Assembly: GCF_003334765.1 (NCBI RefSeq)
Contig: NZ_QOWT01000052.1
Direction: 5' to 3' (one strand)
From: Escherichia coli
GTDB taxonomy: Bacteria; Pseudomonadota; Gammaproteobacteria; Enterobacterales; Enterobacteriaceae
Length of the DNA stretch: 17,115 bases
In this document: piece by piece, positions 1 to 17,115 of the stretch
Numbering within the stretch: the first letter of the stretch is position 1
Layout of the letters: every line of letters begins with the position of its first letter
Translations under genes and position numbers: made by a program
The notes under the pieces: generated by a model
The model's database searches: none
What the model was told of the DNA's origin: nothing
What the model saw: only the letters and a program-made list of their open reading frames with translations

Positions 1-77
1 GTGGCGGCCTCAGTCCGGAACAATTTGAAAACAAGAACCTCGCTTAGGCCTGTGTCCATATTACGTGGGTAGGATCA
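1..77 (-). repeat. Left copy of a perfect 77-bp terminal inverted repeat; reverse complement equals 17039..17115. Likely the terminus of an IS3-family element whose body lies outside the window.
   Basis: Reverse complement of 1..77 is identical to 17039..17115; identity stops at 78 versus 17038. Terminus reads TGATCCTACCCAC...TGGACA, an IS3-family-like end. Confidence 0.6.
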
Positions 78-283
78 CAACGTCTTCACCGGCAGCAACA
101 GCAGTGAGGCTTCCTTCCTGGTATTGTTTCTTCCACTTAAACAACAGACTGGGCTGAATTCCATGCAAACGCGCCACGTGGGACACGGTCATGCCAGGCT
201 CCATAGTCTGTTGAATAATTGCGATTTTTTCCTGAGGTGTTTTTACGTTTACGCACCTCTTTTCCTAACAAAACGCCAGCCAT
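78..283 (-). pseudogene. IS2-like orfA (insC-like), frameshifted in an A-run near 235-245 and 3'-truncated by insertion
   Basis: N-terminal residues are in one frame and the HTH region in another; the ORF terminates in the inserted repeat (..EDVV-ILPT-stop). Confidence 0.5.
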
Positions 284-374
284 CTCAAAATTAGAACTAG
301 TGTTAGACATATATCCAAGCCTATCTCTTATTTTAAGATACATCTACTGTCTGGTATTTCAGGGGGACAGCTCA
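78..374 (-). mobile_element. IS2-like (IS3 family) left-end fragment: IRL-like sequence plus orfA, cut at 77/78 by the terminal repeat element
   Basis: Minus-strand translation gives [14 protein letters not shown]..., then after a frame change [55 protein letters not shown], matching IS2 InsC/OrfA as recalled. Upstream motifs CCCCCTGAA..CCAGACA resemble the IS2 IRL. Homology ends exactly at the repeat boundary. Confidence 0.55.
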
Positions 375-574
375 ACGAATAATCACACAGCAAATAATAA
401 TGACAAACAAGAATATAACTCAAAAAAATATCCAGAATGATGATATCCTGAATATTTTGCCACTACGAATTAATCATATGAACATAATAATTTGACAATA
501 ACCACGCAAAATGTTAAAGAATTACGAACCTATATAATAGACAAAATCGTAAAATAATAGGCTGGAGATATAAG

Positions 575-2023
575 ATGCTAAAGGGCTTTGATATAACAAA
601 AGCAAAAGCACAAGAAGTAGATACAGAACTACTTAAGCGTAGAATTTCCACTGGAAAAGCCATCGCATTCACAGGTGCAGGCTTCTCACTCGGAACAAAA
701 AATGTACTAGGCTCTACCCCCCCAATGGCTGGAGAGCTAGCTAAGAAACTCAGTTTATTATGTAATCTCGAAGAATCTGAAGATTTAATGTTTGCAGCAG
801 ACGTTGCACTTGAGTACGCAGATAATATTTCAGTATTAGACTTACTTAAAGATAATTACACACTAACATCTGTTTCAGAATGTCATGAAAAAATATGTAA
901 ACTACCCTGGAAAAAATTTTTCACAACAAATTATGATAACTCTATAGAACTTGCCTGTCTGAATATAGGTAAACGTATAGAATCAGTTGACTTATCTTAC
1001 AAACCAACAAATTTTTTAAAAAAAAATAATGTTTGCCTTCATATTAATGGAAAAATTGAAAGTGCTGAACCTGAAGATTTAACCTCCAAAATAAAATTAT
1101 CAGATTCATCATACCTGTCTCCAGATTCATTTGTAAATTCTGATTGGTACTATCACTTCAAAAAAGATCTTGAAACCGCAAGTGCTATCGTATTTATGGG
1201 ATACTCCATGTATGATATGGATGTAAAAAAATTCTTGTTCGAAAATCCAGAGTTACAAGAAAAAACTTACTTCGTTGTAAGAGATGGTGCCGATTTTAAA
1301 GAAATATTCACCCTAAGAAAATATGGACATGTTTTGCCAATTGGGGTGGACAGGTTTTCAGATTTAATGAAGGATGTTCAAAAGCAATCACATGAAGATG
1401 GTGTTATCTTCACAGAAACACTAGTCAAATATGAAGTTTTCGACACACAAACAGACTTTAGAGATATTGATAGTGAGCGATTATTTCTTTACGGTGATTA
1501 TGAAATAGAAAAACTCCATGACTCTATCAGAAGAATAGAAACCATTCCGTACTTTATTAAACGCGATATAATTCCTGTTTGTCTTAACAACATTAAAAAT
1601 AATAATAACATTATTATCACTGGCGATCTGGGAAATGGAAAGTCTATAGTTTTAGAAATGTTAGCTTATGAGTTAACTGTAAATGGTTTTCACACATATA
1701 TATTACGAAATAACGATGGTGATTATGTTTCTGATCTTGATCAAATTATCAAACATGAGGGGACGGCCGTAATTATCATTGATAACTGCTCTAATCATCC
1801 GGGTTTGATAAAACATATTTTTGAAGTTAAAGCTGATAACTTAATTTATGTTTTTGCTGACAGAAACTCAAACGACATAAAATTTAATATTTCTCTTGAT
1901 TTTATAGAGCACAATATAGACTTACTATCTAGTGACGAAATCGCAAGCGCAGTAAAAATCATAGATAATTTATCTACATGGCAAAAATTTTCCGCATTAT
2001 CCACTGAGAGAAAAAAAGATTAG
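575..2023 (+). CDS. SIR2-like (SIR2_2-type) domain fused to a P-loop NTPase domain; N-terminal 482-aa segment of a longer frameshifted gene
   Basis: SIR2_2-like motifs: FTGAGFS, TTNYD, LHINGK, VFMGYSMYDMD. Walker A GDLGNGKS and Walker B-like AVIIIDN. RBS GGAG about 8 nt upstream of the ATG. AT-rich codon usage. Confidence 0.7.
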   Translation: MLKGFDITKAKAQEVDTELLKRRISTGKAIAFTGAGFSLGTKNVLGSTPPMAGELAKKLSLLCNLEESEDLMFAADVALEYADNISVLDLLKDNYTLTSVSECHEKICKLPWKKFFTTNYDNSIELACLNIGKRIESVDLSYKPTNFLKKNNVCLHINGKIESAEPEDLTSKIKLSDSSYLSPDSFVNSDWYYHFKKDLETASAIVFMGYSMYDMDVKKFLFENPELQEKTYFVVRDGADFKEIFTLRKYGHVLPIGVDRFSDLMKDVQKQSHEDGVIFTETLVKYEVFDTQTDFRDIDSERLFLYGDYEIEKLHDSIRRIETIPYFIKRDIIPVCLNNIKNNNNIIITGDLGNGKSIVLEMLAYELTVNGFHTYILRNNDGDYVSDLDQIIKHEGTAVIIIDNCSNHPGLIKHIFEVKADNLIYVFADRNSNDIKFNISLDFIEHNIDLLSSDEIASAVKIIDNLSTWQKFSALSTERKKD

Positions 2024-2301
2024 TATATGAAAAATATGACGCACAGCTATCTCTATTGCTTCTGGGATTGATAAATAGTCCAAATATAAAAACAAAAATC
2101 AAACAACAAACCGATTTAATATATTCCAATCCAGATCATAAAAAGAGCGTCTTCTGCATTTGCATTTGTGAAGTCGCTAATGTAGAACCAACATCAAGTT
2201 TAGTATCAGAAATATCAGGAACTAATGCTATTTATCATACATCACTAAGAAACTCCCCCCCCATTCAATCAAATTTTCAAAGTAAATGGAGCAACTATTA
2301 A
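2008..2301 (+). other. Middle fragment of the SIR2/NTPase gene in the +1 frame between two homopolymer frameshifts
   Basis: This frame is open from 2008 immediately after the A7 run (2011..2017) and ends shortly after the C8 run (2255..2262). Confidence 0.4.
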
Positions 2302-3019
2302 ATCAAAATCAAGCATTCTGTCATTATCTTTACTAAACAATACCTTTAGCGATATTTATGTAAGAGATGTACTCCTTGAAATTGTTGAACGTACTGACTC
2401 AATAAAAGACCAGGATATTGAAATAAAAAAAATATTTAAAGCACTATTGAGATTTCATATAGTTGAAAGAATTTTACCGAAGAATCAATCTGCACTAGAC
2501 AGATATTATGAACAGTTAAAATATAGATGCACATGGTTAATGGATAGCCCTCACTATTGGGTTCAATATGCAATGTGTCGACTATCTTTTTCAGATTATA
2601 ATAGAGCACAAAATTACCTAACCAACGCTTATCAAAAAGCAGAAACAAAAAAAGGAAGTTATCATACTGATAACATTGACACTCAACAGGCTCGTCTATA
2701 TTTAAATCAGTGTTTAGATCATAACAACAGTTCTGAGTGTTATAAACTGTTCGATAAAGCACATGCTCTTCTTGTGAAACTCCCCAATGAAGGAAGAAAG
2801 TTTAGACAAGTTCTGTTATATAAAAAAGTTTTTGATTTAAAATACCAAAGTTTCAGTAAAAAAAACAAAACTGATTTTGAACAGGCATGTAAAAAATTAT
2901 TAGATCAGACAAAACCAGATAATGTTTATCCTATAAATACTAATATGGTAAGATTCATCACCTCTGCTGAAGAGGCATTAATTGAAATATTAAACACTAT
3001 TATGCTAGAGCGAACTTAA
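2264..3019 (+). CDS. C-terminal alpha-helical (possibly TPR-like) segment of the SIR2/NTPase gene; the frame is open from 2264 although the ORF caller starts at 2447
   Basis: Same frame as 575..2023, open from just after the C8 run to the stop at 3019, followed by a strong terminator hairpin. Confidence 0.55.
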   Translation, partial: FNQIFKVNGATIKSKSSILSLSLLNNTFSDIYVRDVLLEIVERTDSIKDQDIEIKKIFKALLRFHIVERILPKNQSALDRYYEQLKYRCTWLMDSPHYWVQYAMCRLSFSDYNRAQNYLTNAYQKAETKKGSYHTDNIDTQQARLYLNQCLDHNNSSECYKLFDKAHALLVKLPNEGRKFRQVLLYKKVFDLKYQSFSKKNKTDFEQACKKLLDQTKPDNVYPINTNMVRFITSAEEALIEILNTIMLERT

Positions 3020-3027
3020 CTGTAAAA

Positions 3028-3053
3028 AGCCACCTCCTGAGGAGGTGGCTTTT
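3028..3053. terminator. Rho-independent terminator hairpin, possibly bidirectional
   Basis: Perfect 10-bp stem AGCCACCTCC / GGAGGTGGCT with a 3-nt loop, followed by TTTT and preceded by AAAA. Confidence 0.65.
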
Positions 3054-3096
3054 CAGAATCCCCCCTATAAGGATGGCAAATGTCATATTCCATTTT

Positions 3097-3468
3097 CTAC
3101 TCTAGCAACTCCATCTGCTGTTCATGTGTTTGTTCCATCTTTTCCTGGTACCTCACATATCGTCTGATAATTTCTTCGTTCCCCCCTACCGTATCAACAA
3201 AGTAACCCCTCGACCAAAAATGGTTTCCCCATAACTTCTTCCCGATATGCAGGAATCGATTGTAGAGTCTGATTGCACTGCGGTCTTTCAGCTGCCCCAT
3301 CAGAGTAGATATTGAGATTTTTGGTAGCACTATTACGACAAGATGCATATGATCTGGCTGTACATTTAACTCCAGAGCCTCGCAATCTTTTATTCCGCAA
3401 AGAATAAAGATGGTTCTGTACAGCTCCTTGCCCAATTTATCCCTCAGAATCCTAAAGCGGTACTTTAG
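3097..3468 (-). CDS. tnpA: IS200/IS605-family Y1 (HUH) transposase TnpA; N-terminus apparently disrupted (in-frame stop upstream of the conserved CKYHIV, no ATG)
   Basis: Minus-strand translation CKYHIVWTLKYR...DHMHLVV (HxH)...FWSRGYFVDTVG (catalytic Y region) matches IS200 TnpA. The ORF caller starts at an internal Met (3435). Confidence 0.7.
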   Translation of the reverse strand, partial: LKYRFRILRDKLGKELYRTIFILCGIKDCEALELNVQPDHMHLVVIVLPKISISTLMGQLKDRSAIRLYNRFLHIGKKLWGNHFWSRGYFVDTVGGNEEIIRRYVRYQEKMEQTHEQQMELLE

Positions 3469-3917
3469 CGTCCAGACTATGTGATATTTGCAACACTAAT
3501 ATACATGTGATGAACTTCTGTAAAGCCCTATATCAGTTTGTCTCCTTTTACTTGTGGTGTGTAAGCAGATATATTCAGACATGGACATTCTTCAGGCTAT
3601 AACCTTACAGGAACAATCACCACCTCCACAAGAGGTGAGGTTTTATTTTACCTGTCACTCCCAAAAGAGTATATTAATACATGAATAATGTCTTAGCATT
3701 CTATTTGGCATTCATATTAATTTAACTTCTGCACCCCTAATATTTCATTACTCTCTTTTGAATGTATGCCTGATACAGTATATGATGTTAAAAACTTAAT
3801 TGACGTTGTGTAAATAGACCCGTTTTGGTTACATACATTTTTTGAGATTCCGGAAAGAATTACCCTGTCCCAAAATCAATACAGTGCTAAATCAGAGATC
3901 TTTGTCTTTCCTGAGAC

Positions 3918-4295
3918 TTCAAAAAAATTCAGCCGGCGTCACGTCATTTAATTATGAATGCGTTCTCTCATGATTATATTTCCTGCGCCAGTAATCGAGT
4001 TTGTCTTGTGCATCTTCCAGTTTTCAGCGCCAGTGATATAAGACGGTAATTCGCCATTTGGATTGTCCGCATCCCCATAACGGTCAAACATCGTGGCGTT
4101 GACACAGTGACAGGAACCAGTGAATGTTCAGACACTCATCCCGCAGACTGCCGTTAAACGATTCAATAAACGGTTTATCTGCCAGCTTTCCGGGGGGCGA
4201 GAAGTCCATGTTCACACCGTGTTCATACGCCCCTTTATCCAGACTTTTGAGATAAACTCGCTGCCGTTGTCACCGCCACGATGTTTGACCGTTAT
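3918..4295 (-). pseudogene. IS3-family (IS2-group-like) orfB C-terminal remnant with frameshift and premature stop
   Basis: Minus-strand frames give GGDNGSEFISK, PGKLADKPFIESFNGSLRDECLNIHWFLSLEDAQDKLDYWRRKYNHERTHS, then stop, then TPAEFF: a DDE/integrase core C-terminus. Confidence 0.55.
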
Positions 4296-4327
4296 TTGCC
4301 ATTTTCATGCCCGCTAAGATACTTTCG

Positions 4328-5111
<784 letters not shown>

Positions 5112-5115
<4 letters not shown>

Positions 5116-5780
5116 AACAGCTCCTCATAGGTACTCAGTGGTCGATGTTCCACCTGACTGACCTGCTGCCAGAGCGGGGCGTGATGCTCCGGCACTGTCT
5201 GCCAGCCAGACGATGCCGGACAGAGGCGATGTGAGGCCACCAGTTTCTCATTACTGTAGATCCGCAACTCGTCATCCAGCGATATTCGTATCGATACTGG
5301 CTGACCACACAGCGCTTCGGGAACGCTGTAACGATTACCACCAACCTCGATATAGCTGTCCCAGGACACATGGCGGATGTCGAAGTAACTGGTATCGAAG
5401 TCCGTATCCGGTAACGGCTGCAGATGTTCCTGCTCCAGCGCGAAGCGCTGTTCCGGCGTTTCTTTGAACTGGCGAAGCTCCCGTTTGTCAGCCACATCGG
5501 CTATCCATTGCTCCAGTAGTTGATTAACATGAGTGAAGCTGTCGAACCTGCGGTACCGGACGAAGAAGTTCTCCTTGAGGTATTTCACCATCCGCTCAAC
5601 CTTACCTTTTGTTCTGGCCCTGCGTGGACGGCATGCCCGTGGCAGGAAGTTATAGTGGTCGGCCAGCAACAGGAATCCGGAGTTGAACACGACTTTCCCG
5701 TTGTTATTCTTCAGCACCGCAGCCTTCTGGTTATCAACCAGCACCGTTTTCACACAACCACCGAATTTGATCCCTGAAAA
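5112..5780 (-). pseudogene. istA: IS21-family istA, 5'-truncated (C-terminal part only)
   Basis: Translation ..GIKFGGCVKTVLVDNQKAAVLKNNNGKVVFN... continues in frame upstream of the called start to a stop near 5780. Confidence 0.7.
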
Positions 5781-6018
5781 CTGTCAGCGCTGCGAGGACA
5801 TGGCTGCTTAAAAAAAGAACAAATGGTAGTGTCCGCTATTGCCAGTACACCTCAGATTCTGGGGATAACTGCGAAAAGAATATGTGCCAGGAAAGTCGGC
5901 TCCCGGGAAAAAGACCGCTGGCGGCGCAGCTGCTGGATACGAAAGCTGAGCTGAAAGGATCCCGGGAGGACGTCCGTAAACTTCAGTCCCTGGCCCGTCA
6001 TGACGGGAAGGTGAAAAA

Positions 6019-6660
6019 GTGAATGCGGACACCTGGACCCGCCTGCAGGCCTTCCGACATGCTCTGGAGCTGACTTCCTGTGAGGCTTCTCTCACCGCCG
6101 GGTATGATCACCTGAAGGATTTCCCGGCCGGTTGCAGCGAGCTGGCCAGCCAGACGCTGACTGATTATCTGACGGAAGACGGCAGCAACCTGTACTCCTG
6201 TATTGTCGGTATGCAGTGGGATAATGGTCCTGGCAGATACGGCCACGTCATTGCCGCCCCTGCCAGGGACTATATCGACCTGACCCTTGATCAGTTTCCA
6301 GGCTATCATAACCGGATTGTGGCAGAGCCCGTTGAGTCCGGCGGACAGCTCGCGGCAGACCTCAACAGGGAGCCTGCCATCAGTACAGCTGATGGAATAG
6401 TGGCCAGCGCATCAGATAAGGTTAATTACATTACTGAACAGAAAAATCGCCAGCCAATGGTGATCATTACAGAATGTTACAAACTGATCAGAATGACGGC
6501 AAGATTTATACCAATGTGCCAGTCATCTCAACTCTTCCAGCACCAGATATTCCCTCGCTTATTTATCATTTCAGACGTTGGCTCCTGCAGTTTGTCCAGG
6601 AACACCTTAGATCGTTTAGCTACTGACTGGAAGGTGACACTGTCCGTCCTGTCGCTATAG
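6019..6660 (+). CDS. Hypothetical protein; the C-terminal third may be spurious read-through
   Basis: 213-aa ORF with a GTG start overlapping the stop of a small upstream ORF; GC-rich backbone-like codon usage; no recognisable motifs. Confidence 0.35.
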   Translation: MNADTWTRLQAFRHALELTSCEASLTAGYDHLKDFPAGCSELASQTLTDYLTEDGSNLYSCIVGMQWDNGPGRYGHVIAAPARDYIDLTLDQFPGYHNRIVAEPVESGGQLAADLNREPAISTADGIVASASDKVNYITEQKNRQPMVIITECYKLIRMTARFIPMCQSSQLFQHQIFPRLFIISDVGSCSLSRNTLDRLATDWKVTLSVLSL

Positions 6661-7239
6661 GGCTTGATATAAACCAGGCAGGCAAGGGATCTGGTTAACA
6701 CCTTTCCTTCCATAAAGTGTTTGAAGATCCAGAGATACGTATCCACAAGCTCCAGCCCTGTACTCAGTGTCCCCGACTGGAAGACCTGCGGTTCAGCTGG
6801 TATTTCCGTTACATCCATGACCGGTGTCTGCGCAGCAGTGCCTGTCATCAGGATATTCATGGAGCCAGTCTGTATGCGCCTCTGGCGTTGAAACAAACAT
6901 ATGAAGTGTATTTCGGATATGACTGTACGCTCAGGAAGTACGGCAGATTCCGTCAAAAATTACCTGTAAAGACAGACTTCAGAAAAAACGGTGCTCGCCG
7001 CAGACCGGTGACCGGGCGAAGCCCGCGAACCGGCGAGGAAGCGCAATGGATCTGTAATCACAGTGAGCAGGTACGCCCTGAAGCCTTCATAATCGGTAGT
7101 GTATGCTGTTTTTCCGGAATGATTTATCCACATATCCAGAGGCCCGATCCAGTAAATAGATCCATGAATGATCAATAAAGGATCCATTAAAGATCCCCAT
7201 ATCGCTACAAACCTTGTCACTCATGGGCCGGGACCACGA

Positions 7240-7345
7240 TCACATAAGCTGTGGCATGTTACTGATAAACTGTAATATGCTAATGATAAGCTGTATTCAG
7301 TAATGCATATACTGAAGTAAGCTAATGACATAAACTATGGTCAGT
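7240..7345. repeat. Iteron-like repeats upstream of repA (RepFIB-type origin repeats)
   Basis: Repeated ATAAGCTGT / ATAAACTGTA-type motifs, at least five copies. Confidence 0.5.
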
Positions 7346-7499
7346 ACGCCAGACTCTGTTGTTAAATACAGACTGCAGGTTTTTCTTCAGTCAGTTAGCG
7401 GGGCTCTGACACACGATTTGCTGTTTATTCTTTTACTGTCCACAGGCAGGAGGCTTTCTGGAAAACGAAAATTCAGACATCAAAAAACTGTTCGGCGAG

Positions 7500-8477
7500 G
7501 TGGATAAGTCGTCCGGTGAGCTGGTGACACTGACACCAAACAATAACAACACCGTACAACCTGTGGCGCTGATGCGTCTGGGCGTCTTTGTACCGACCCT
7601 TAAGTCACTGAAGAACAGTAAAAAAAATACTCTGTCACGCACCGATGCCACGGAAGAACTGACGCGTCTTTCCCTGGCCCGTGCAGAAGGATTCGATAAG
7701 GTTGAGATCACCGGCCCCCGGCTGGATATGGATAACGATTTCAAGACCTGGGTGGGGATCATTCATTCCTTTGCCCGCCATAACGTGATTGGTGACAAAG
7801 TTGAACTGCCTTTTGTCGAGTTTGCAAAACTGTGTGGTATACCCTCAAGCCAGTCATCACGCAGGCTGCGTGAGCGCATCAGCCCTTCCCTGAAACGCAT
7901 TGCCGGTACCGTGATCTCCTTTTCCCGCACCGATGAGAAGCACACCCGGGAATACATCACCCATCTGGTACAGTCAGCCTACTACGATACTGAACGGGAT
8001 ATTGTTCAGTTACAGGCTGATCCCCGCCTTTTTGAACTGTACCAGTTTGACAGAAAGGTCCTTCTTCAGCTTAAGGCGATTAATGCCCTGAAGCGACGGG
8101 AGTCCGCCCAGGCACTTTACACCTTTATAGAGAGCCTGCCCCGGGATCCGGCACCGGTATCGCTGGCGCGGCTGCGTGCACGCCTCAATCTGAAGTCTCC
8201 TGTATTTTCCCAGAACCAGACGGTCAGACGGGCAATGGAGCAGTTGCGCGAGATTGGATATCTTGATTACACGGAGATCCAGCGGGGGCGGACAAAACTC
8301 TTCTGCATTCACTACCGGCGTCCCCGGTTAAAAGCACCGAATGATGAGAGTAAGGAAAATCCGTTGCCACCTTCACCTGCGGAAAAAGTCAGTCCGGAGA
8401 TGGCGGAGAAGCTTGCCCTGCTTGAAAAACTGGGCATCACGCTGGATGACCTGGAAAAACTCTTCAAATCCCGCTGA
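7500..8477 (+). CDS. repA: Plasmid replication initiator RepA, RepFIB-type
   Basis: 325-aa ORF beginning [30 protein letters not shown]..., recalled as IncFIB RepA; flanked on both sides by iteron clusters; GTG start. Confidence 0.8.
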
Positions 8478-8478
8478 A

Positions 8479-8747
8479 CATAAACTGTAGTCAGTGAAGA
8501 GTGCTCCTTTACTGACTACAGCTTATATTATCAGGTGCAGTGAGTGGTCTGCTCACTGCAGTTTATATTCAGTTTCCTGCAGTGCTGCCTGTGGCTGAGC
8601 TGCCATCTGCCTGTCCCTTACGTGAGTCACCCCGTAACCTGATGCTGAGGCATTTCTCCCTTTATAAAACATGGTTTACTCACTACAGCTTATCTACCTG
8701 CTCCAGCTTATGTTATGTCTGTTCTGCTGACCACTGCTTATATAAGG
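8479..8747. repeat. Iteron-like repeats downstream of repA
   Basis: Repeated ACTACAGCTTAT / CTGCAGTTTATATT / CCACTGCTTATATA motifs in both orientations. Confidence 0.5.
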
Positions 8748-8755
8748 AAGTGCCG

Positions 8756-9496
8756 TTACTTCAGGGGAGGCAGTGTACGCAGGATCTCCGCAGCATCCCG
8801 CCCGTCACCTGTGAAAGGCACTGCCAGCGTGGCAGCCATATCCAGTGCAAACACTCTGGTATAAACCTCCATAGAACGTGGATCCCTGTGACCAGCCAGT
8901 GCCTGGATGACTTTCCGGGGCTGGCGGTGATAGAGCATGTGCATGATATAGCTGTGCCGGAAGGTGTGTGGTGTGACCGGAATCGAAAAGTGCACCCCGT
9001 CAGCTTCGGCCCGCTTCACTGCCTGTTTCAGCCAGTTCCGCATCGTTTCATCCGTCACAGCCCATAACGGTGCACGGCGCCGGGGCCGGGTGGTGATCAT
9101 CCAGCTCTCCATCTGCCTGACATAGCTTATATCCGTCAGCGGGACCAGGCGGACTTCATCTTTTGGAGGGCGCCCGCGTCGCGCACGCACTTTTTCGGAC
9201 AGGATCCGCACAAACGGTCTTACTCCATCCAGGTCAAATGATTCCGGTGTCAGCATCCGGGCTTCGCCAATACGCATTCCGGTATTCCAGAGGGTGGCGA
9301 ACAGCATATGGTGACGCTGATCCGGCATATAGAAAAGAAGGGCACTCACTTCCGGGGCCAGCAGGTAGGCCGGTGTGGCCCCCGTGGAAGTGGCCATTCT
9401 TCTCAGGGAGAGCGCTGTTGCAAAATCCACCCCTGGCGCAATGGGTAACAGGGAGACGCGTTCTGGTGAATTCTGCAGGGGAATGACATTGTTCAT
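8756..9496 (-). CDS. int: Tyrosine site-specific recombinase (phage-integrase family)
   Basis: 246 aa with C-terminal [12 protein letters not shown]...[16 protein letters not shown], matching the R-H-R-Y catalytic region (LGH...Y motif). Confidence 0.8.
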
Positions 9497-9712
9497 GAGT
9501 TATTTTTCACGTAGCACACGCACTGTTTATGGATACAGTTATTCTGACCTGAACGCACGGATCCTTCCACGACAATAAATCGCAGCGCGCGGATCCTTTT
9601 GTTTGCTTATCACGCATTATTGCGGGTAAAACCAAATACGTAAAGGCGCGTTTTGCCGCAGGGATCCTGTCTTAAGCCAGTCATGGCGCGGGCTGAGAGC
9701 TGGTTTGCCGTT

Positions 9713-9858
9713 TTTGGGAGAATTGGGGTAATGCCAGGACAAACAGGATCGAACCAGAAGGGGGAGGGTGCAGAGAAGGAGAGGAAGCGCTACGTGAATT
9801 CTGACCTGGTACACCCCTGTAACCCTGTCTGTTTCCACGTAGCGCAATGCGGTTACTG
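9713..9858 (+). repeat. Repeat A: about 146-bp element, diverged direct copy of repeat B; contains a 10-bp inverted repeat GCGCTACGTG (9787..9796) / CACGTAGCGC (9836..9845)
   Basis: Start TTTGGGAGAATTGGGGTAAT and the core CGCTACGTGAATTCTGACCTGGTACA are near-identical to repeat B. Confidence 0.5.
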
Positions 9859-9859
9859 A

Positions 9860-10109
9860 CTACTGCCAGTTGAGATGACGCCCGGCATCCTGATGCTGAC
9901 TTAAAATACGGATAATAATAATATCTGTATCAGTCTGAATAAAATAAAGCATATGCCGTTCAACGGGCAGTGCGAAGATATCTTCCACCAGTTCAGGCCG
10001 GGGAGTGCCGATATTATTATCACTCATAACCTGAAAAATGCCGGCACCCGTAATACCAGATATCCTCCAGATCCTGACTGGCTTTAGGTGTGAGTTTAAC
10101 GGTTTTCAC
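9860..10109 (-). pseudogene. parE: ParE/RelE-family toxin, apparently frameshifted near 10050..10055
   Basis: GTG start overlaps the parD stop; N-terminal frame reads VKTVKLTPKASQDLEDIWYY.. then stop; a second frame reads ..PELVEDIFALPVERHMLYFIQTDTDIIIIRILSQHQDAGRHL, a ParE-like C-terminus. No ORF of 60 aa or more was called here. Confidence 0.5.
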
Positions 10110-10362
10110 CGGAAGCCCTCGTACCAGCCTTAACTTTTTTCAGGAACGCGTCCTTTTCCCACGCCACAGGTTCGCCGCTGCTCAGGCCTTCTGCCAGTAA
10201 ATCCCGCAGGGCCTGGAGACGTGACTCTGCCTGTTTCTCGCGCAGGAGACGAAGTGACTCGCGAATCACTTCACTCTGAGTACGATAATCACCTGATTCT
10301 ATGAGAGATTCAATGAATTCACGGAGTTCATCTCCGAGATCCACTGTCATTGTTCTGGCCAT
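10096..10362 (-). CDS. parD: ParD-family (ribbon-helix-helix) antitoxin
   Basis: 88 aa, MARTMTVDLGDELREFIESLIESGDYRTQSEVIRESLRLLREKQ...; RBS GAGG upstream; operon with the downstream toxin. Confidence 0.75.
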   Translation of the reverse strand: MARTMTVDLGDELREFIESLIESGDYRTQSEVIRESLRLLREKQAESRLQALRDLLAEGLSSGEPVAWEKDAFLKKVKAGTRASGENR

Positions 10363-10376
10363 ATTAAAGCCTCAAT

Positions 10377-10399
10377 ATTGTAAGTTTAAATCTTACAAT
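10377..10399. promoter_or_regulatory. Palindromic putative operator ATTGTAAG-N7-CTTACAAT, 15 bp upstream of the parD start
   Basis: 8-bp inverted arms around an AT-rich spacer, overlapping a candidate -10 on the minus strand. Confidence 0.45.
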
Positions 10400-10439
10400 C
10401 AGTTTATTCGATACTCAAGGGCGAGTCCAGTACTGAACA

Positions 10440-10577
10440 TTTGGGAGAAATGGGGTAATACCCAAGATAGACCAAAAAGGGAAGGGAGAAGTAAAGAAGA
10501 AGGTTCGCTACGTAAATTCTGACTTGGTACAAACCTCTATAAAAAAGAAATTTTTCATGTAACACATTTGGGTACTG
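10440..10577 (+). repeat. Repeat B: about 138-bp diverged copy of repeat A, flanked by direct 9-bp CCCAGTACT (10427..10435 and 10592..10600)
   Basis: Alignable to repeat A over its whole length at roughly three-quarters identity by eye. Confidence 0.5.
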
Positions 10578-10641
10578 CCTCCCAGTAAAGGGAGACAGCA
10601 TCCCAGTACTATAATTGTACTATATAATATAATGTAGGTGA

Positions 10642-12579
10642 TTAAAATAAATTATCTAATCCGAGCAAACTTTCTTTTTCCTTTTTTATCATGTTGAGAT
10701 GATTTAGTGATTTTAAATAAATATAATTATACATATCTTCAACCAAGTTTTCTAATACTAGGAAAACCCTGTTTTTTACACCTGCCTGTGTTAATAATTT
10801 ATCTATAAGCATACTGTTTTTATCGTTTATGATTCCATCAGATTTTATTTTATCGAGGCCTGAAATTATCTTTAAACATGAAGGTGTCGTAATTGCATTG
10901 TCAAAAATAATGTCATGCAAAGAGTATGTTGATAATTTTTCTATATCAGAGAAGGCGAGGACATTCAGAATGTTATCATTAAATGGACCGATTGATACAT
11001 CGTGCATAGATTCAAGTTTATTGTTATTTGATTTTCTATCTTTACGTAGTTCTTTATTTTGAACAATAACTCTCGCATCACCGATTAGTTTATAATAGAA
11101 ATTTTCAGCTAATGTGCTCGCTGAAAAATTCTCTTCTTTAAAACCAATCTCTTGCATTAACGGAATGATTAACTCTTCCGTTGTATTTTCCATGTCTATG
11201 TGGTTTAAAAAAACCGCAGTATTCAGCATAATAGAGTTATTTTTTAGTTCCTTTACCAAACTCAGCAATATCTTACTTTTTATACTAGATGCGCTGTTTT
11301 TAATGAATTCAGCCGCATGATACTCTTGAATTGTTTTATGGACAAATGTAAATATTTCGGCGCCATCTCTTCTGATCAAACCTGTGACATCGATATAGTC
11401 ATTAATAAGATCTTCGGCAAAAGTATCAGAATAATTGAGCCCCAAAACTTTAAATGATTTTTTAGTGATATTTTTTAAGTTATCCCATGATAATTGGGAT
11501 GAACTTTTTAGCGATATGTAACATAAAGCACAAAATATTTCTTTTGATTCACTAATTGAGAGGTTTGTTTTTCTATGCCTTTTATAGAAATTTTTTGTTT
11601 TATCATGGCCTTCAAATAGTATATTAAATATTCTATTGTAAAATTCTCTTGCATTTTTAGGCATTGAATCGAGATGCTTTTCACAAACACAAAGCAGTAC
11701 AGCAAGAATTGGAGTATTAATTGAAGAAAGCAATTGTTTATTTTTCTTAAGCGCTGCTATAAGTTGATCAGCTGACTCCTTTGGTAAAAAATTACCTATT
11801 ATGGAAAAAACATCTTTCTCTGTTAGTGGTTCAACATGATAATTATTTATTCCTGCAGTAGTGCATATTTCTGTTCCAGGCCGAGACGTTGATATTAATT
11901 GAGTCTGAAAAGAATCATTTAAATGCAATATTTCTTTTAAAATAGTTTCTCTAATATCAGGGGATATTTCATCAAAACCATCTAGTAGTAATATAATTTT
12001 TTTACTTTTCAGTAACCCCTTTAGGTCAGCATTAGTGCAGTTTAATTCGAGAGTAGTTAATGTTTTTATTAAACTATCTTGTATTGAATTGTTTTCCAAG
12101 TTTCTAAGATCAAAAAAGAATGGTATTTTATTAATTTTTGAATTATTACTTAAAATAGCTAGGAATATTTTTCTTAAAATTGTTGTTTTCCCTTGTCCAG
12201 CAGCGCCAATTATATTTAATATATTTTCATTTTGAATACAAAAATCATTATTAATTAAAAGGTCTTCATTTGTACGGTTGTTTTTTACCGTGAGTGGATG
12301 ATAAAATTCATCTATAAAAGCATCATCATTTAAATTATATAAAGTTCTTACTGACAAGTATCTTTTAATACATAAATCAAAATAATGAGTGAAAGTATCT
12401 TTCTTCAATATTTGTTCAATAAGTACTTTCGCATTATCAGTTCCATGTTTCCACTTTTGTGAAACTACTGAATTTAACAATTCGTAAGTTGATTTTGTTA
12501 AAGATTCACTAAAAGTTTCTACCATTTTATTGGTGGCCACAATACCCAGTGCAGCAGCAGATATTGTTAACGGTTCCAT
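10642..12579 (-). CDS. NACHT-domain NTPase (bacterial NACHT / STAND family), 645 aa
   Basis: Walker A GAAGQGKTT; NACHT-type Walker B ILLLDGFDE; sensor-1 ISTSRP; RBS AAGGAG 6 nt upstream of the ATG; AT-rich. Confidence 0.85.
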   Translation of the reverse strand: MEPLTISAAALGIVATNKMVETFSESLTKSTYELLNSVVSQKWKHGTDNAKVLIEQILKKDTFTHYFDLCIKRYLSVRTLYNLNDDAFIDEFYHPLTVKNNRTNEDLLINNDFCIQNENILNIIGAAGQGKTTILRKIFLAILSNNSKINKIPFFFDLRNLENNSIQDSLIKTLTTLELNCTNADLKGLLKSKKIILLLDGFDEISPDIRETILKEILHLNDSFQTQLISTSRPGTEICTTAGINNYHVEPLTEKDVFSIIGNFLPKESADQLIAALKKNKQLLSSINTPILAVLLCVCEKHLDSMPKNAREFYNRIFNILFEGHDKTKNFYKRHRKTNLSISESKEIFCALCYISLKSSSQLSWDNLKNITKKSFKVLGLNYSDTFAEDLINDYIDVTGLIRRDGAEIFTFVHKTIQEYHAAEFIKNSASSIKSKILLSLVKELKNNSIMLNTAVFLNHIDMENTTEELIIPLMQEIGFKEENFSASTLAENFYYKLIGDARVIVQNKELRKDRKSNNNKLESMHDVSIGPFNDNILNVLAFSDIEKLSTYSLHDIIFDNAITTPSCLKIISGLDKIKSDGIINDKNSMLIDKLLTQAGVKNRVFLVLENLVEDMYNYIYLKSLNHLNMIKKEKESLLGLDNLF

Positions 12580-12867
12580 TTTTGCTCCTTCAAAAAATTA
12601 TAAAGTGACTGTCTAAATTCATTTAGAATAAAAAGGATAATTACTGATTCTTGATATGGAAGTTATAAAGTGGTTCATATTAAGAAATTCCAAAACCTAA
12701 AGTGTTTGTAACTATATAAAAAATAGATAATAAATCAAGGTTGTTGACATAAAATTTGACACGACGAACTGAAACTCAATGTGGACTAAGGAAAGCACTT
12801 ACCCTATTGTAAAGCATTGATTTAAAATGTTATTTTTTATATTTAACATAATCTTTGTTATGCGCAC

Positions 12868-13570
12868 TAAGGGTGTAACAGCAAAGTTGTAATGTCCGCC
12901 TTGGGCTAAGTTAAGATGTCCGGCGTGTATAATCAAGTAAGGATTACCATGACGGCTCTCGCAGCGGAGTTTTTCACTTTGGATGAAGTTAACCGACTCA
13001 AGATTATTCAGGACGTCATCGACCGGCGTCTGACAACACAGATGGCAGCGCAGCGGCTTGGTATCTCCGACCGCCAGTGCCGTCGTCTGCTTGCGCGTTA
13101 TCGTGAAGATGGTCCGCTTGGCATGACCAGCCGCGTGTCGAAATCACTCACTGTGCAGTACGACAAAGTGCTTTACCTCATTGAAGACAATGAGTTCAGT
13201 CGTCGGGCGATTGGTAAATACATTGATGTCTGGCATTACCCTGACGGACATAAAGAGCTCCGGCTTAATGGCGTATCAATTCCCTACTCCACCTATGACA
13301 AACTGTCTGAAATCGATCAGGGTGCCATTGTGGACAATAAACGTCTTGGGCGTGCGCTGGAGATGGCGCAACTTGTGCAGGCCGAACGGGATAATAACCG
13401 GTCACAATCAGTGCCATCCGGTGACGGCCCTTCACGCAGGCGCAAAGCCCCTACGACGAAGAAATCCCAGCGTTCTTTGGACCAGGACGATATGTTCAAT
13501 GCACTTGTAAAACTTCAGACACGAGCTGAGGAGATTTTTGGTGAACGCAACCAAAAATGATGTTTTGATA
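12868..13570 (+). mobile_element. ISNCY/IS481-like IS remnant with an internally deleted transposase gene
   Basis: Left-end sequence AAGGGTGTA... is shared with the full copy at about 15675; the gene lacks the catalytic core. Confidence 0.5.
12949..13560 (+). pseudogene. Internally deleted DDE transposase derivative: N-terminal HTH fused in frame to the C-terminal domain (about 280 aa of catalytic core missing)
   Basis: Residues ..NRLKIIQDVIDRRL..GPLGM and ..LTVQYDKVLYLIEDNEFSRRAIGKYIDVWHYPDGHKELRLNG.. align to both ends of the 415-aa transposase at 15794..17041. Extended -10 TGTATAAT and RBS AAGGA precede the ATG at 12949. Confidence 0.6.
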
Positions 13571-13611
13571 CGAACATTTCAATGGTCAATAGATAGAGTG
13601 GAGATGGGCAG

Positions 13612-14658
13612 ATGATAACGTTTTCTATGGATGAAAGTGGCTATACGGGTTATGACTTACTCCACAAAGAGCAAAAATTCCAAGGCGCGTCATCAATATT
13701 AATAAACCATGATGACGCCAGTCGTCTGATAAAAGAATATTTCCCCAAACTTCAAGCCGATGAATTGAAGTACAGCTCGCTGAAAAGAAGAGATTCCAAC
13801 CGCAAGCCATTATTTGAATTGCAAAAGCATCTCTTATCTAATTACCCATGTATAACATGCGTAGGTGATAAACGCTTTTTACTAATTCTTATGTTCATCG
13901 ATTATGCTGTTGAACCATTCTATTATGATTTTGGGATTAATCTTTATGAGGATGGCGGTAACTTCTCAATGGCATCAATGGTGTATTACGTTGGACCAGC
14001 GTATTATGGCTCTGCCTTTGATGATGTTCTGCTTCAGTTTCAAAATGCTATGAAAGAAAAAACATTAGATTCAGTGAGTTTGCTAATAAGCAAAATAAGG
14101 AGGCTTGACTGGCAAAGGTTAAAAGAGTTTTTTGGTCCTTTGGCATTTAACCACCCAGATTGTATTGATGCCATCATGACTGATGGAATTAGCACTGATG
14201 CCTCATTTACTATTTTAAATGCATTAATTTCTCGCACGGAAATGATGTCCTCTGGAGAGTATGCAATTGAGCATGATCGTTCTAAAAATCTGCTAACTTA
14301 CAATGAACGCCTTAACTTTTTGATCAATTGTGATAAGGAAGGAGAGTTTAAACATTCCGAGATAGCAACTATCTCATTCCCACTAAACCTTAAAAAAGTC
14401 TATCAAATTGATTCGAAAGAAAGCCCAAGCGTGCAATTGTGTGATGTTCTTATAGGTGCATGTATTGAATCAGTTTATCAATTAATGGACTCTAAGGTAC
14501 TCAATCAAAATTCCGTTCTTTCACTTTACCAAGATAGCCAGTTAATACATTTCATACCTGATATAGATTTTGAAGGACAGAAAAAATTTAGGAAAGGCAG
14601 TCAAAGTGAGGAGTATCTTACGTTTATTCAAAATGAAATCTACTCTAGTAAACTTTAA
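13612..14658 (+). CDS. DUF3800-like protein (uncharacterised), 348 aa
   Basis: N-terminal FSMDESGYTG (DESG motif) and C-terminal VQLCDVLIGA (QxxD-like motif), as recalled for DUF3800; RBS GGAG; AT-rich. Confidence 0.6.
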   Translation: MITFSMDESGYTGYDLLHKEQKFQGASSILINHDDASRLIKEYFPKLQADELKYSSLKRRDSNRKPLFELQKHLLSNYPCITCVGDKRFLLILMFIDYAVEPFYYDFGINLYEDGGNFSMASMVYYVGPAYYGSAFDDVLLQFQNAMKEKTLDSVSLLISKIRRLDWQRLKEFFGPLAFNHPDCIDAIMTDGISTDASFTILNALISRTEMMSSGEYAIEHDRSKNLLTYNERLNFLINCDKEGEFKHSEIATISFPLNLKKVYQIDSKESPSVQLCDVLIGACIESVYQLMDSKVLNQNSVLSLYQDSQLIHFIPDIDFEGQKKFRKGSQSEEYLTFIQNEIYSSKL

Positions 14659-14663
14659 AAAAA

Positions 14664-14684
14664 GGCTCTGAAAATCAGAACCTT
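14664..14684. terminator. Imperfect hairpin between the convergent genes (possible bidirectional terminator)
   Basis: GGCTCTGA-AAA-TCAGAACC stem with one mismatch, A-run upstream. Confidence 0.3.
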
Positions 14685-14893
14685 ATCGCACCACCAGACA
14701 TAGAAATGATTCGTGAAGCTATTTTATACAGAACCAAAAACACAAAGGCCAAAACAGTCATGATATCTAATACCATAGGCATTACCTCCACTAACGTATT
14801 CAAGACAAACGCTTTATACCCGCATCAGTCCGTAGACAGGCATCTGTTCGTCAGTTTGTGGATTTCTATGGGTGGTGAGACCGGGTAGAGACA

Positions 14894-15538
14894 TCATACC
14901 TGTTTTCTTAGAAGCTGGTCAATATAGCTGATCGTGTGAAATTCACGTTCGATTTTCATACAAACATTTGGCAACTGTTCGATAAGAAAGTTTTCATCGA
15001 AGCGATCTAGAAGGTACGTGAGGGTAATAGTATCAATTTTATTCAATTTTCTATGTAAAACTGAAGAACGCCTCACAAAATCGTTTTTCCTTAACTCTTG
15101 AATAACATCGATCAAAATAGGGTTGAATAATTCTTTTTCTGGAAAGGACTTGTAAATTTTCGAATCAATAATTTGAGAAGGATCTAAGCGGTTAATTAAA
15201 TTATTACTGCTAACTATGTAGCACTTATCAATCATCAAACCTTCCGTTTTGCAACGGTCTAAATCACAAGCGTTTATTATACATTCTTTAAATACAACAT
15301 GTCGCAGGCTCCCGCCTCTAAAAAGGACTCCTCTTAATAAAGAGGATTGGAAAAGACTGCCAGTAAAGTTACACCATTTCAATGAAGCACCAATAAAAGA
15401 CGTGTTCGTGAATTTTGACTGAAAAAAATTTGAATGGTAACTGTGTGTCTTATTGAAATTTTTATTTATAAAATTCCTACTCGCAACATCACGATTATTG
15501 TAGCTGAAAGCATTTTTGCTCTTCTTATTCCTTGCCAT
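14894..15538 (-). CDS. Pentapeptide-repeat protein: N-terminal pentapeptide-repeat region plus a C-terminal domain of unknown function, 214 aa
   Basis: Residues about 20..95 show a 5-residue periodicity (RNFIN KNFNK .. SNFFQ SKFTN TSFIG ASLKW CNFTG SLFQS SLLRG VLFRG GSLRH VVFKE) with F/L at the centre position. Confidence 0.6.
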   Translation of the reverse strand: MARNKKSKNAFSYNNRDVASRNFINKNFNKTHSYHSNFFQSKFTNTSFIGASLKWCNFTGSLFQSSLLRGVLFRGGSLRHVVFKECIINACDLDRCKTEGLMIDKCYIVSSNNLINRLDPSQIIDSKIYKSFPEKELFNPILIDVIQELRKNDFVRRSSVLHRKLNKIDTITLTYLLDRFDENFLIEQLPNVCMKIEREFHTISYIDQLLRKQV

Positions 15539-15674
15539 ATTTATATCTCAGACTTTATAAGTCTAATGATATTCCCACGAATTGCTTTCCCTGTGAAGTT
15601 TTTGTTGACCAAGCAAAGCAGTTTATGGACATTTGAACTTTGCCCTACCCCGGACATCTGAACTTAGCTTTGAC

Positions 15675-17038
15675 AAAGGGTGTAGAGGCTCAATGCTAAT
15701 GTCTATTTGTGGCTCATTGGAATGTCCAGGCTATAGTTTCTCAGATCCCTATGTCTAGACAACGACTCACTTTTTCCTGATGAGGAGTTTTCTATGGCTA
15801 TAAATGACGCCGGAATGTTCACCGTGAAAGAAATCAATCGCCTCAAAATCCTTCAGGATGTCATCGATCGCAATATCCGTCCTGGACAGGCTGCCGAAAT
15901 GCTGGTCATCACGCCACGTCATTGCAGCCGTCTGCTCAAACGTTATCGCCAGTATGGGCCGCTTGGCATGAACAACCAGAGTCGTGGCCGCACTGGTAAC
16001 CGTCTGTTGCCAGCGTCACTGACAGATCAGGCACTCAGTATAATCCGGGAGCACTACCGTGATTTTGGCCCCACGCTAGCGCGGGAAAAGCTGGAGGAAG
16101 TTCACGGTCTGGTCCTTGGAAAGGAAACCATCCGACGTCTCATGATAAAGGCCGGACTCTGGATTCCCCGCAGACAACGCGCACCGAAAATTCATCAGCC
16201 TCGTTACCGGCGTCCTTGTACTGGCGAGCTGATACAAATTGATGGCTGCGACCACCACTGGTTTGAAAACCGGGGTCGACCCTGTACTGCCCTGGTCTAT
16301 GTTGACGATGCCACCAGTCGCCTGATGCACCTGCTGTTTGTGAAATCTGAGTCCACATTTACCTATTTTGAAGCTACACGTGGCTATATCGAGAAATACG
16401 GTAAACCGATGATCCTCTACAGCGATAAAGCCAGCATATTCAGAGTCAATAATAAGCACGCCACCACCGGCCCCGGCGAAACCCAGTTTGCCAGGGCCAT
16501 GCGCTGCCTTAATATTACTCCTTTGTGTGCTGAAACCAGCCAGGCAAAAGGCCGCGTTGAACGTGCTCATTTGACACTTCAGGACCGACTCGTTAAGGAG
16601 CTCAGGCTTAAGGGGATCTGTACAATAGAAGCGGCCAATGCATTTGCAGAAGAATACATGGCGGATTATAACCGTCGCTTTGCCAAAGAACCCTTGCATG
16701 ATTTTAACGCGCACCGGCCGCTGGCATTAGACGATGACCTTGATGCAGAATTTACCTGGCGAGAGCCTCGCCGGGTATCAAAAAATCTGACTGTACAATA
16801 CGATAAAATGCTCTATCTGATTGAGGACAACGAGTACAGTCGAAGAGCCATCGGCAAGTATATTGATGTCTGGCATTATCCTGACGGACATAAGGAGCTG
16901 CGACTAAATGGCGTGCTGCTGCCCTACTCCACCTATGACCGGCTTTCTGAGGTTGATCCCGTCGCCATTGTAGATAACAAGAGACTTGGCCATGTGTTGG
17001 ATGTTGCCCGTCAGGTCCAGAGAAAACGGGACAATAAT
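15675..17038 (+). mobile_element. ISNCY/IS481-like insertion sequence, 3'-truncated by insertion of the terminal-repeat element
   Basis: Left-end homology with the 12868 copy; the transposase reading frame is cut at 17038/17039. Confidence 0.6.
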
Positions 17039-17041
17039 TGA
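15794..17041 (+). CDS. DDE transposase (integrase-core type, ISNCY/IS481-like), 415 aa, C-terminally truncated by about 45 aa relative to the homolog at 12949..13560
   Basis: N-terminal HTH, central core (..QIDGCDHHWF..YVDDATSRLM..) and C-terminal DVWHYPDGHKELRLNG; RBS GAGGAG. The stop codon TGA is supplied by the first bases of the 77-bp repeat. Confidence 0.8.
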   Translation: MAINDAGMFTVKEINRLKILQDVIDRNIRPGQAAEMLVITPRHCSRLLKRYRQYGPLGMNNQSRGRTGNRLLPASLTDQALSIIREHYRDFGPTLAREKLEEVHGLVLGKETIRRLMIKAGLWIPRRQRAPKIHQPRYRRPCTGELIQIDGCDHHWFENRGRPCTALVYVDDATSRLMHLLFVKSESTFTYFEATRGYIEKYGKPMILYSDKASIFRVNNKHATTGPGETQFARAMRCLNITPLCAETSQAKGRVERAHLTLQDRLVKELRLKGICTIEAANAFAEEYMADYNRRFAKEPLHDFNAHRPLALDDDLDAEFTWREPRRVSKNLTVQYDKMLYLIEDNEYSRRAIGKYIDVWHYPDGHKELRLNGVLLPYSTYDRLSEVDPVAIVDNKRLGHVLDVARQVQRKRDNN

Positions 17042-17115
17042 TCCTACCCACGTAATATGGACACAGGCCTAAGCGAGGTTCTTGTTTTCAAATTGTTCCG
17101 GACTGAGGCCGCCAC
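17039..17115 (+). repeat. Right copy of the 77-bp terminal inverted repeat (IS3-family-like terminus)
   Basis: Identical to the reverse complement of 1..77. Confidence 0.6.

Follow-up and report, generated by a model that had tools for sequence, protein, structure and literature searches.

The 17,115-nt contig NZ_QOWT01000052.1 of Escherichia coli (assembly GCF_003334765.1), referred to here at its full length as the window, belongs to an IncFIB plasmid and is a mosaic of DNA of about 50% guanine plus cytosine (GC) content and three islands rich in adenine and thymine (AT-rich). The mosaic is real and strongly significant, yet ordinary in kind. Judged from its ends, target-site duplications and independent copies elsewhere, the third island is the passenger load of a transporter insertion sequence (IS) of the IS1202 family, which we call element A. 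We are fairly confident of the overall explanation, in which the window would be a RepFIB variable region with modules that are candidates for a role in immunity, island 3 would have been delivered by element A, and the AT-richness would be a property of the gene families concerned.

An earlier note, made from this sequence, had proposed AT-rich cargo islands in a GC-balanced backbone, each abutting an IS end and acquired by IS activity from a low-GC donor. The compositional part holds, close to the positions given. A sliding 400-bp GC profile swings between about 25-38% and 45-59%, with a standard deviation of 0.097; in 1000 shuffles this was 0.024 on average and never above 0.032. The three segments that had been named as AT-rich have 31.5% (375-3060), 28.7% (10600-12900) and 36.0% GC (13570-15700), and the stretches between them 49.4% (3061-10599), 50.2% (12901-13569) and 50.5% (15701-17115). 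Unsupervised likelihood-ratio segmentation gives the same pattern, in seven blocks, with change points at 203, 3982, 10264, 12862, 13490 and 15877. With feature-based borders the islands total 7727 nt and have 32.1% GC, as compared with 50.5% in the other 9388 nt, a difference with p about 1e-128 (chi-square 583). GC at third codon positions (GC3) is 22-25% in the SIR2 gene of island 1, 22% in the NACHT gene of island 2, and 33% and 35% in the DUF3800 and pentapeptide genes of island 3, as against 47-65% for repB, int, parD and every transposase gene or fragment. The preference for A/T-ending codons in the islands was thus correctly seen, as was the balanced composition (about 50% GC) of the IS remnants, the rep-int region and parDE, and the sliding-window and codon-usage analyses that had been suggested gave a strongly significant difference; an outcome of no difference did not occur. 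The borders of the blocks were roughly right, the exceptions being that the first reaches to about 3951, not 3060, and that island 2 starts at 10463, not 10600, having been moved by a homology boundary at 10462/10463. The islands as refined range from 29 to 36% GC, and with the stretch between the first two they are as follows.

284-3951, no strand: AT-rich island 1, 33.3% GC, with an Avs5-like gene, a terminator, an IS200 remnant and an unannotated AT-rich spacer (from composition)
5766-10462, no strand: GC-balanced IncFIB backbone, 50.9% GC (annotation and replicon typing)
10463-12840, no strand: AT-rich island 2, 29.1% GC, a NACHT module of one gene, with the parDE module on one side and a dif-like site on the other (homology borders)
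13561-15625, no strand: AT-rich island 3, 35.6% GC, the passenger region of element A

The reading that each island was brought by an adjacent IS and retains the composition of a low-GC donor is in our view unlikely as a whole. IS elements or remnants do lie near every island, and island 3 is truly IS-borne. However the relatives of the genes in islands 1 and 2 give no pointer to such a donor. The NACHT and SIR2-STAND proteins have named relatives in E. coli, Enterobacter, Klebsiella, Yersinia, Vibrio, Pseudomonas and similar genera, with those of the NACHT protein all in Proteobacteria, and a scan of one genome per species for NACHT gave mostly Proteobacteria with a few very distant matches in other phyla. 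At 16 of 16 loci with usable flanks, GC in the NACHT gene is lower by 7-25 points than in DNA over 3 kb distant (mean -15), and Avs5-family genes, at 30-33% GC with flanks of 50-57%, are 18-23 points lower in all 4 hosts. The flanking DNA of the NACHT and Avs5-family hosts spans about 36-70% GC, host GC being an approximation from 2-14 kb of far flank at 24 loci in all. Since both families are AT-rich in every host sampled, far below host GC in 20 of 20 genomes, low GC is a property of the family and not the mark of a donor, and for islands 1 and 2 the proposed low-GC donor is not borne out.

DUF3800 behaves differently, as its GC follows that of the host, at 57% in Burkholderia, 56% in Pseudomonas, 37% in Proteus (36.6%) and 39% in Rahnella (39.2%), and the copy in the window (35.6%) is near the last two. 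For DUF3800 no donor candidate exceeds 64% identity, the best found being 60-64%.

Nor does every island abut an IS end. Island 3 is inside an IS, between the transposase gene and the right inverted repeat, and island 2 has no IS on its left side, which adjoins the parDE promoter region at 10462, and on its right side has a dif-like Xer site, not an IS end. Island 1 is bordered by decayed IS fragments only. The close Avs5-family orthologues looked at in three other genera, on the chromosomes of Enterobacter, Vibrio and Shewanella, are each inserted as a single gene among housekeeping genes, with no IS alongside, and a more distant copy, in Methylomagnum, has integrase, transposase and resolvase genes in its neighbourhood. 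A mobile unit around the Avs5-like gene was sought by comparison with the orthologous loci, and what the window has in common with Enterobacter is limited to the gene and about 100 nt of its promoter. Acquisition by IS therefore stands for island 3, on its ends, duplications and independent copies, and not for islands 1 and 2, which have no IS-mediated junction.

Island 2 and its right border include two features.

10642-12579, minus strand: NACHT-domain (bacterial NLR-like) protein, 645 aa (Pfam NACHT)
12841-12868, minus strand: dif-like XerC/XerD site, AGTGCGCATAA-CAAAGA-TTATGTTAAAT as read on the minus strand (arm match)

The 645-aa protein matches Pfam NACHT (PF05729) at 1.8e-13 over residues 123-265, and the GxxGxGKT motif is invariant across the family alignment. 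It also matches the NACHT domains of NLRC4 (E=9e-9), and scores 34.6 bits with the EruA model, for which the cut-off is 1000. It is a candidate anti-phage sensor. Other plasmids share the parDE stretch just to 10460-10462, and homology resumes at about 12816, with the segment 12816-12868, the dif-like region, alone common to many Klebsiella plasmids. In NZ_CP145100.1 the same parD-proximal junction holds a gene for a 389-aa multi-pass membrane protein at 33.8% GC (locus 19106-20740), and in further records it is occupied by a Ser/Thr kinase. Going by these records, the junction at 10462 is a recurrent point of cargo exchange among F-type plasmids. NACHT homologs with 78% and 50% identity are beside toxin-antitoxin modules on other F-like plasmids, close to IncFII repA. 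The pairs concerned are Gp49 (PF05973) with a helix-turn-helix protein in one (6109-8938), and TacA with a GNAT acetyltransferase in the other (7001-10110; both in locus coordinates).

The near-consensus dif-like site at the border, together with recurrent exchange at 10462, could be taken as signs of a dif module of the Acinetobacter kind, with the NACHT island as a cassette that lies between two Xer sites and is moved by XerC/XerD. This we consider very unlikely, as such a cassette has two sites and the window has a single acceptable one: a second Xer site was sought across the window and none was found with 5 or fewer mismatches, the next best having 6 mismatches in 22 and being inside the NACHT gene. 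In addition NZ_CP145100.1, which has the alternative cargo, has no such Xer site in the region fetched.

The dif-like site has one mismatch to the arms of E. coli dif, is matched in 0 of 200 shuffles, and is the sole good site in the window. Near-identical sites are listed as targets of ISKpn21 and ISKpn65 (PMC10132070 Table 8; bioRxiv 10.1101/2022.12.17.520857 supplementary table). It is followed by element A and by a second IS, element B.

12869-12873, no strand: target-site duplication AAGGG, left copy, 5 bp
12874-15675, plus strand: element A, IS1202-family transporter IS of the ISAba32/ISAjo2 type (inverted repeats, duplication and independent copies)
12916-13560, plus strand: element A transposase gene with an internal deletion of about 795 bp, 50% GC (blastn with the intact copy)
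13612-14658, plus strand: passenger gene 1, DUF3800 protein, 348 aa (Pfam DUF3800 at 1.6e-4)
14894-15538, minus strand: passenger gene 2, pentapeptide-repeat protein, 214 aa (Pfam Pentapeptide)
15676-15680, no strand: target-site duplication AAGGG, right copy
15681-17039, plus strand: element B, ISSen13-like, IS1202 family, with its 3' end cut by IS3 (ends and NCBIfam)

Element A is 2802 bp in the window and 3598 bp when intact. It has ends TGT...ACA and imperfect inverted repeats, TGTAACAGCAAAGTTGTAATGTCC and TGTCAAAGCTAAGTTCAGATGTCC, that agree at 18 of 24 positions, and there is a second, internal AAGTTnnnATGTCC repeat. The intact unit of 3598 bp is in Klebsiella pneumoniae plasmid pS161-2.2, bounded by TGTAACAGCAAAGTTGTAATGTCC... 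and ...GGACATCTGAACTTAGCTTTGACA. One intact copy is on the reverse strand of NZ_CP058546.1, at about 138199-141796. Three independent insertions have different duplications, AAGGG in the window, AATTT in pS161-2.2 and TAACG in Citrobacter braakii pF217-2. In all four contexts, the fourth being pPM4-5-tetX4 in which the right end has been lost, 5 bp separate the left end from the XerC arm, and it is the left inverted repeat that faces the site; all four sites have the form ATTTAACATAA-N6-TTAnnCGCAC, with a perfect XerD arm (ATTTAACATAA) and a central region that differs each time. The intact transposase has 468 aa, and NCBIfam ISNCY_2 matches both the N- and C-terminal pieces retained in the window. 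Many plasmids that share DNA from about 12840 have an intact 468-aa ISNCY transposase gene, with DUF3800 51 nt further on. The copy in the window could, on its sequence, be mobile only with transposase supplied in trans.

The IS1202 family has a transposase of about 441-496 aa, ends TGT...ACA, inverted repeats of about 24-26 bp and a 5-bp duplication, and its ISAba32/ISAjo2 subgroup includes transporter ISs with passenger open reading frames (ORFs) and stacked insertions, in which the copy proximal to the site is the last to arrive (PMC10132070; bioRxiv 10.1101/2022.12.17.520857). By these characters element A is a member of that subgroup. In the intact element the transposase part has 50.2% GC and the cargo 35.5%, so that there is a compositional step within a single mobile element.

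The element B transposase gene (15794-17041) matches NCBIfam ISNCY_2 at 1e-143, and the first 38 nt of the element are the left inverted repeat of ISSen13 (bioRxiv 10.1101/2022.12.17.520857 supplementary table). As element B starts straight after the right AAGGG, it held the site first, and element A was inserted between it and the site. Stacking is seen elsewhere: in pS166-1.1 (NZ_CP063946.1, about 1460-1500) the right end of an ISKpn21-like element is between the site and element A, and in pS161-2.2 (locus 7638 onward) another TGT... left end is just past element A, giving tandem arrays at one Xer site.

Two related transposase genes of ISNCY type, in the same orientation, bracket the cargo of island 3, and one could think of a composite transposon made by two flanking ISNCY copies. 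This is highly improbable, and we reject it on the boundaries of the elements: A and B differ, with 71% nucleotide identity, the duplication and inverted repeats enclose only the left transposase gene and the cargo (12874-15675), and the 3.6-kb unit is found with its own duplications, and without element B, in the C. braakii and K. pneumoniae plasmids.

The DUF3800 protein is part of a large conserved family of 348 aa. Its relatives are cargo of a Tn7-like element, an integrative and conjugative element and a lambdoid prophage, and one is beside the repressor of a P2-like prophage. The DUF3800 domain has a predicted RNase H-like fold and has been described in type VII retrons and Cas12a2 loci; a sequence search of PDB for a DUF3800 structure gave nothing. 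The pentapeptide protein is not placed with Qnr/MfpA, as its best score is 22.7 bits where the NCBIfam cut-off is 240. We considered whether the two genes are a widely conserved pair and rejected this, as 0 of 4 distant DUF3800 contexts have a pentapeptide neighbour. Close copies of the pentapeptide gene occur only with DUF3800, on enterobacterial plasmids, and element A and its derivatives alone have the two genes as a pair. In Salmonella, Klebsiella, Enterobacter, Citrobacter, Leclercia and E. coli, at least 29 large plasmids have a match that stops at window position 14807, with an intact transposase gene and DUF3800, and with the pentapeptide gene and right inverted repeat missing; the only one typed and inspected is the IncHI1A tet(X4) plasmid pPM4-5-tetX4 (NZ_CP096833.1, 4034-6762).

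The features of island 1 and of the IS debris to its right are as follows.

575-3019, plus strand: homolog of Avs5 (AVAST type 5; SIR2-NOD-sensor), 814 aa if intact, interrupted here (Pfam and phmmer)
2011-2017, plus strand: A7 tract (A8 in the intact allele), -1 frameshift (alignment with the intact allele)
2255-2262, plus strand: C8 tract (C7 in the intact allele), compensating +1 frameshift (alignment with the intact allele)
3025-3054, plus strand: hairpin resembling an intrinsic terminator after the Avs5-like gene, GCCACCTCC-TGA-GGAGGTGGC then TTTT (sequence)
3097-3480, minus strand: tnpA remnant of the IS200/IS605 family, 43% GC (NCBIfam NF033573 at 1.7e-25; Prokaryotic Genome Annotation Pipeline, PGAP)
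3481-3951: AT-rich spacer, 35% GC
3952-5765, minus strand: remnants of an integrase-core (rve) transposase and of IS21-family istB and istA, 51.6% GC (PGAP pseudogenes)

The Avs5-like protein has Pfam SIR2_2 and nSTAND NTPase domains, and phmmer aligns residues 16-784 with residues 42-834 of EfAvs5 (PDB 9JAP) at E=5.6e-139. The motifs TTNYDN, GNGKS and Walker B I-D-(D/N) line up, and include the equivalents of the SIR2 Asn, Walker A Lys and Walker B Asp, which in EfAvs5 are N141, K379 and D426 (PMC11897194); the numbering of the 9JAP chain has an offset of 20 residues as estimated from the alignment. An intact 814-aa allele is present in CP101982.1. In the window the frame is broken after codon 481, with a stop at 2021-2023 and a product of 482 aa, and repair in silico of both the A and C tracts restores the 814-aa ORF. 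The 482-aa product falls in a cluster of 195 deposited sequences, so the frameshifted allele is real and circulating. EfAvs5 is a validated NAD-depleting anti-phage STAND protein in which the sensor domain is essential, its deletion abolishing defence (PMC11897194), and the 482-aa product is probably non-functional here.

The complete 3020-4330 stretch was found in only 9 E. coli genomes. The tnpA remnant is without a start codon and is preceded by an in-frame stop. Within the decayed integrase-core fragment there is a 28-nt inverted repeat (4077-4104 and 4268-4295), 96% complementary and with its arms 163 nt apart.

With regard to the plasmid, the assignment to IncFIB, among E. coli F-type plasmids, is from megablast and replicon typing. 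The feature map is the PGAP annotation of the identical plasmid NZ_OZ547039.1 supplemented by our own domain searches (Pfam, PADLOC and NCBIfam); that record is near-identical, being 1 nt shorter and with its Avs5-like gene split in another way. Two complete E. coli plasmids match all 17,115 nt at 100% identity, and large parts of the window are present in many more. The ends of the window are an exact inverted repeat of 77 nt, 1-77 and 17039-17115, comprising the right end of IS3 and one coincidental base, which suggests that the window is a complete short-read contig (k = 77). With the IS3 end repeated in inverse orientation at both termini, the window appears to be the DNA that lies between two IS3 copies in opposite orientation, and in plasmids without the left copy the matches begin at position 77. 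There is next to no chance that the mosaic is an artefact of chimeric assembly or a chance pattern, since, for all that the window resembles a short-read contig ending in a 77-nt repeat, the same 17.1 kb is found unchanged in two complete plasmids, and chance is excluded by the shuffle and chi-square tests. The remaining features are listed below.

1-76, plus strand: IS3 right end, at the left window boundary (inverted repeat; an IS3 transposase is annotated just upstream in identical plasmids)
76-283, minus strand: decayed transposase fragment, 47.8% GC (PGAP pseudogene 'transposase; frameshifted; incomplete' in NZ_OZ547039.1)
6019-6660: hypothetical gene (annotation)
7500-8477, plus strand: repB, RepB(FIB) (annotation)
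8756-9496, minus strand: int, tyrosine recombinase (annotation)
about 9860-10109, minus strand: parE, frameshifted (annotation of the identical plasmid)
10096-10362, minus strand: parD (TIGR02606 match at 4e-24)
17040-17115, minus strand: right end of the second IS3 copy, inverted (inverted repeat and annotation)

With parD intact and the cognate parE toxin gene frameshifted, the antitoxin is an orphan adjoining the NACHT island. Repeated motifs of 19-24 nt (TTTACTGACTACAGCTTAT and variants) are present on either side of repB, at 8477-8741 and 7285-7308, and resemble RepFIB iterons.

In the overall explanation that we favour, the window alternates between a host-like backbone of about 50% GC (rep, int and parDE) with IS elements or debris, and three accessory modules whose GC is 29-36%. 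These would encode an Avs5-type SIR2-STAND NADase sensor, presumably inactivated, a NACHT/NLR-like protein, and DUF3800 with its pentapeptide partner. The domains and homologies of the four island genes are as observed, and we consider them likely to be standalone candidate anti-phage immunity genes, the function being taken from homology and context. Going by ends, duplications and independent copies, the ISSen13-like element B targeted the dif-like site first, and element A then inserted 5 bp from the XerC arm, between the site and element B, duplicating AAGGG. The internal deletion in the element A transposase gene and the cutting of element B by IS3 came afterwards. Islands 1 and 2 would most likely have entered by recombination or exchange in a region of the plasmid that repeatedly swaps cargo.

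Several observations weigh against this explanation or limit it. The only PADLOC result for the NACHT protein is a candidate family, PDC-S60 (1e-14), and PADLOC gave nothing on the pentapeptide protein and a marginal result on DUF3800. The PADLOC models for AVAST type V made no call on the Avs5-like protein, which was matched only by ThsA SIR2-domain models at E about 1e-9. The frameshifts in the Avs5-like gene make it probable that this module, at least, is inert. We infer that entry by recombination or exchange is most likely for islands 1 and 2, which have no recognisable transposition junction. The host GC values given above are approximate, and since DUF3800 tracks host GC, an earlier lower-GC Enterobacterales host for island 3 is a possible, not a demonstrated, source of its composition. 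Finally element A is apparently uncatalogued as set against the tables of the two IS1202 papers, and it may already bear an ISfinder name. A name was sought in those two papers, and its left end was found only as the flank of an ISKpn65; the ends of ISKpn63 differ. PADLOC and NCBIfam gave no firm defence names for the island proteins beyond their domains, and a search with the RefSeq accessions of the four proteins found no mention in the literature.

AT-rich accessory genes are to be expected in an enterobacterial replicon of about 50% GC, and a foreign, low-GC donor is a common over-reading of them. This case shows why, as the same families are AT-rich where the host flanks run from 36% to 70% GC. 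The variable region adjacent to RepFIB may be seen as a small plasmid immunity island with Avs5-like, NACHT and DUF3800 candidates, and such islands bear on phage susceptibility as shaped by virulence and resistance plasmids. The sole new element is apparently a two-passenger transporter IS, uncatalogued but in a known family, the mosaic being an already known phenomenon. Element A is also on Klebsiella and Citrobacter plasmids, and gives domain-bearing passengers to a class of transporter IS with 'hypothetical' ones. The form truncated at the right end and without the pentapeptide gene is in pPM4-5-tetX4 and, over the same span, in large Salmonella, Enterobacter, Leclercia and Klebsiella plasmids. 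Element A could conceivably be a dedicated vehicle that brings its two-gene module, as a new anti-phage or plasmid-competition system, to the dif-like sites of Enterobacterales plasmids. We make this suggestion tentatively and think it rather doubtful, but if true dif-like sites would be landing pads at which plasmid defence islands are built.

It remains to compare the components of the window with known systems. AT-rich horizontally acquired ('xenogeneic') DNA in Enterobacteriaceae is a target of H-NS silencing. The islands resemble such DNA in having accessory genes 15-20 GC points below a genome of about 50% GC, with strongly A/T-biased third positions, and we see no difference in kind, the window being a plasmid example of the general pattern.

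Avs5, as known from EfAvs5 of Escherichia fergusonii (PDB 9JAP; PMC11897194; PMC12931631), and the Avs5-like protein have in common a SIR2 effector, a NOD and, at the C terminus, a sensor, with homology over the full length. However the gene of the window, in its intact form, is a diverged paralogue, and the copy present ends at 482 aa with the sensor missing. The NACHT protein has, like the bacterial NACHT anti-phage proteins (bNACHT25, PMC12169576; bNACHT11, bioRxiv 10.1101/2024.12.17.629029), a NACHT NTPase in the centre that bears a P-loop, a short region N-terminal to it and a C-terminal region without repeats, and is likewise a single-gene module in mobile DNA. It differs in matching no characterised bNACHT, the sole named family being PDC-S60, an untested PADLOC candidate.

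Element A is closest in organisation to the subgroup with ISKpn21, ISKpn65, ISKpn63 and ISRel10 (Harmer, Pong & Hall 2023, PMC10132070; Siguier et al.). It shares with them a transposase of about 468 aa, the termini, repeats and duplication, the left end 5 bp from the XerC arm, stacked insertions and passenger ORFs. In contrast it is longer, at 3598 bp, than the tabulated ISKpn21 (2278 bp), ISKpn65 (1980 bp) and ISRel10 (2528 bp), a search for the size of ISKpn63 having given none, and where the published elements have single 'hypothetical' ORFs it has two passenger genes with recognisable domains.

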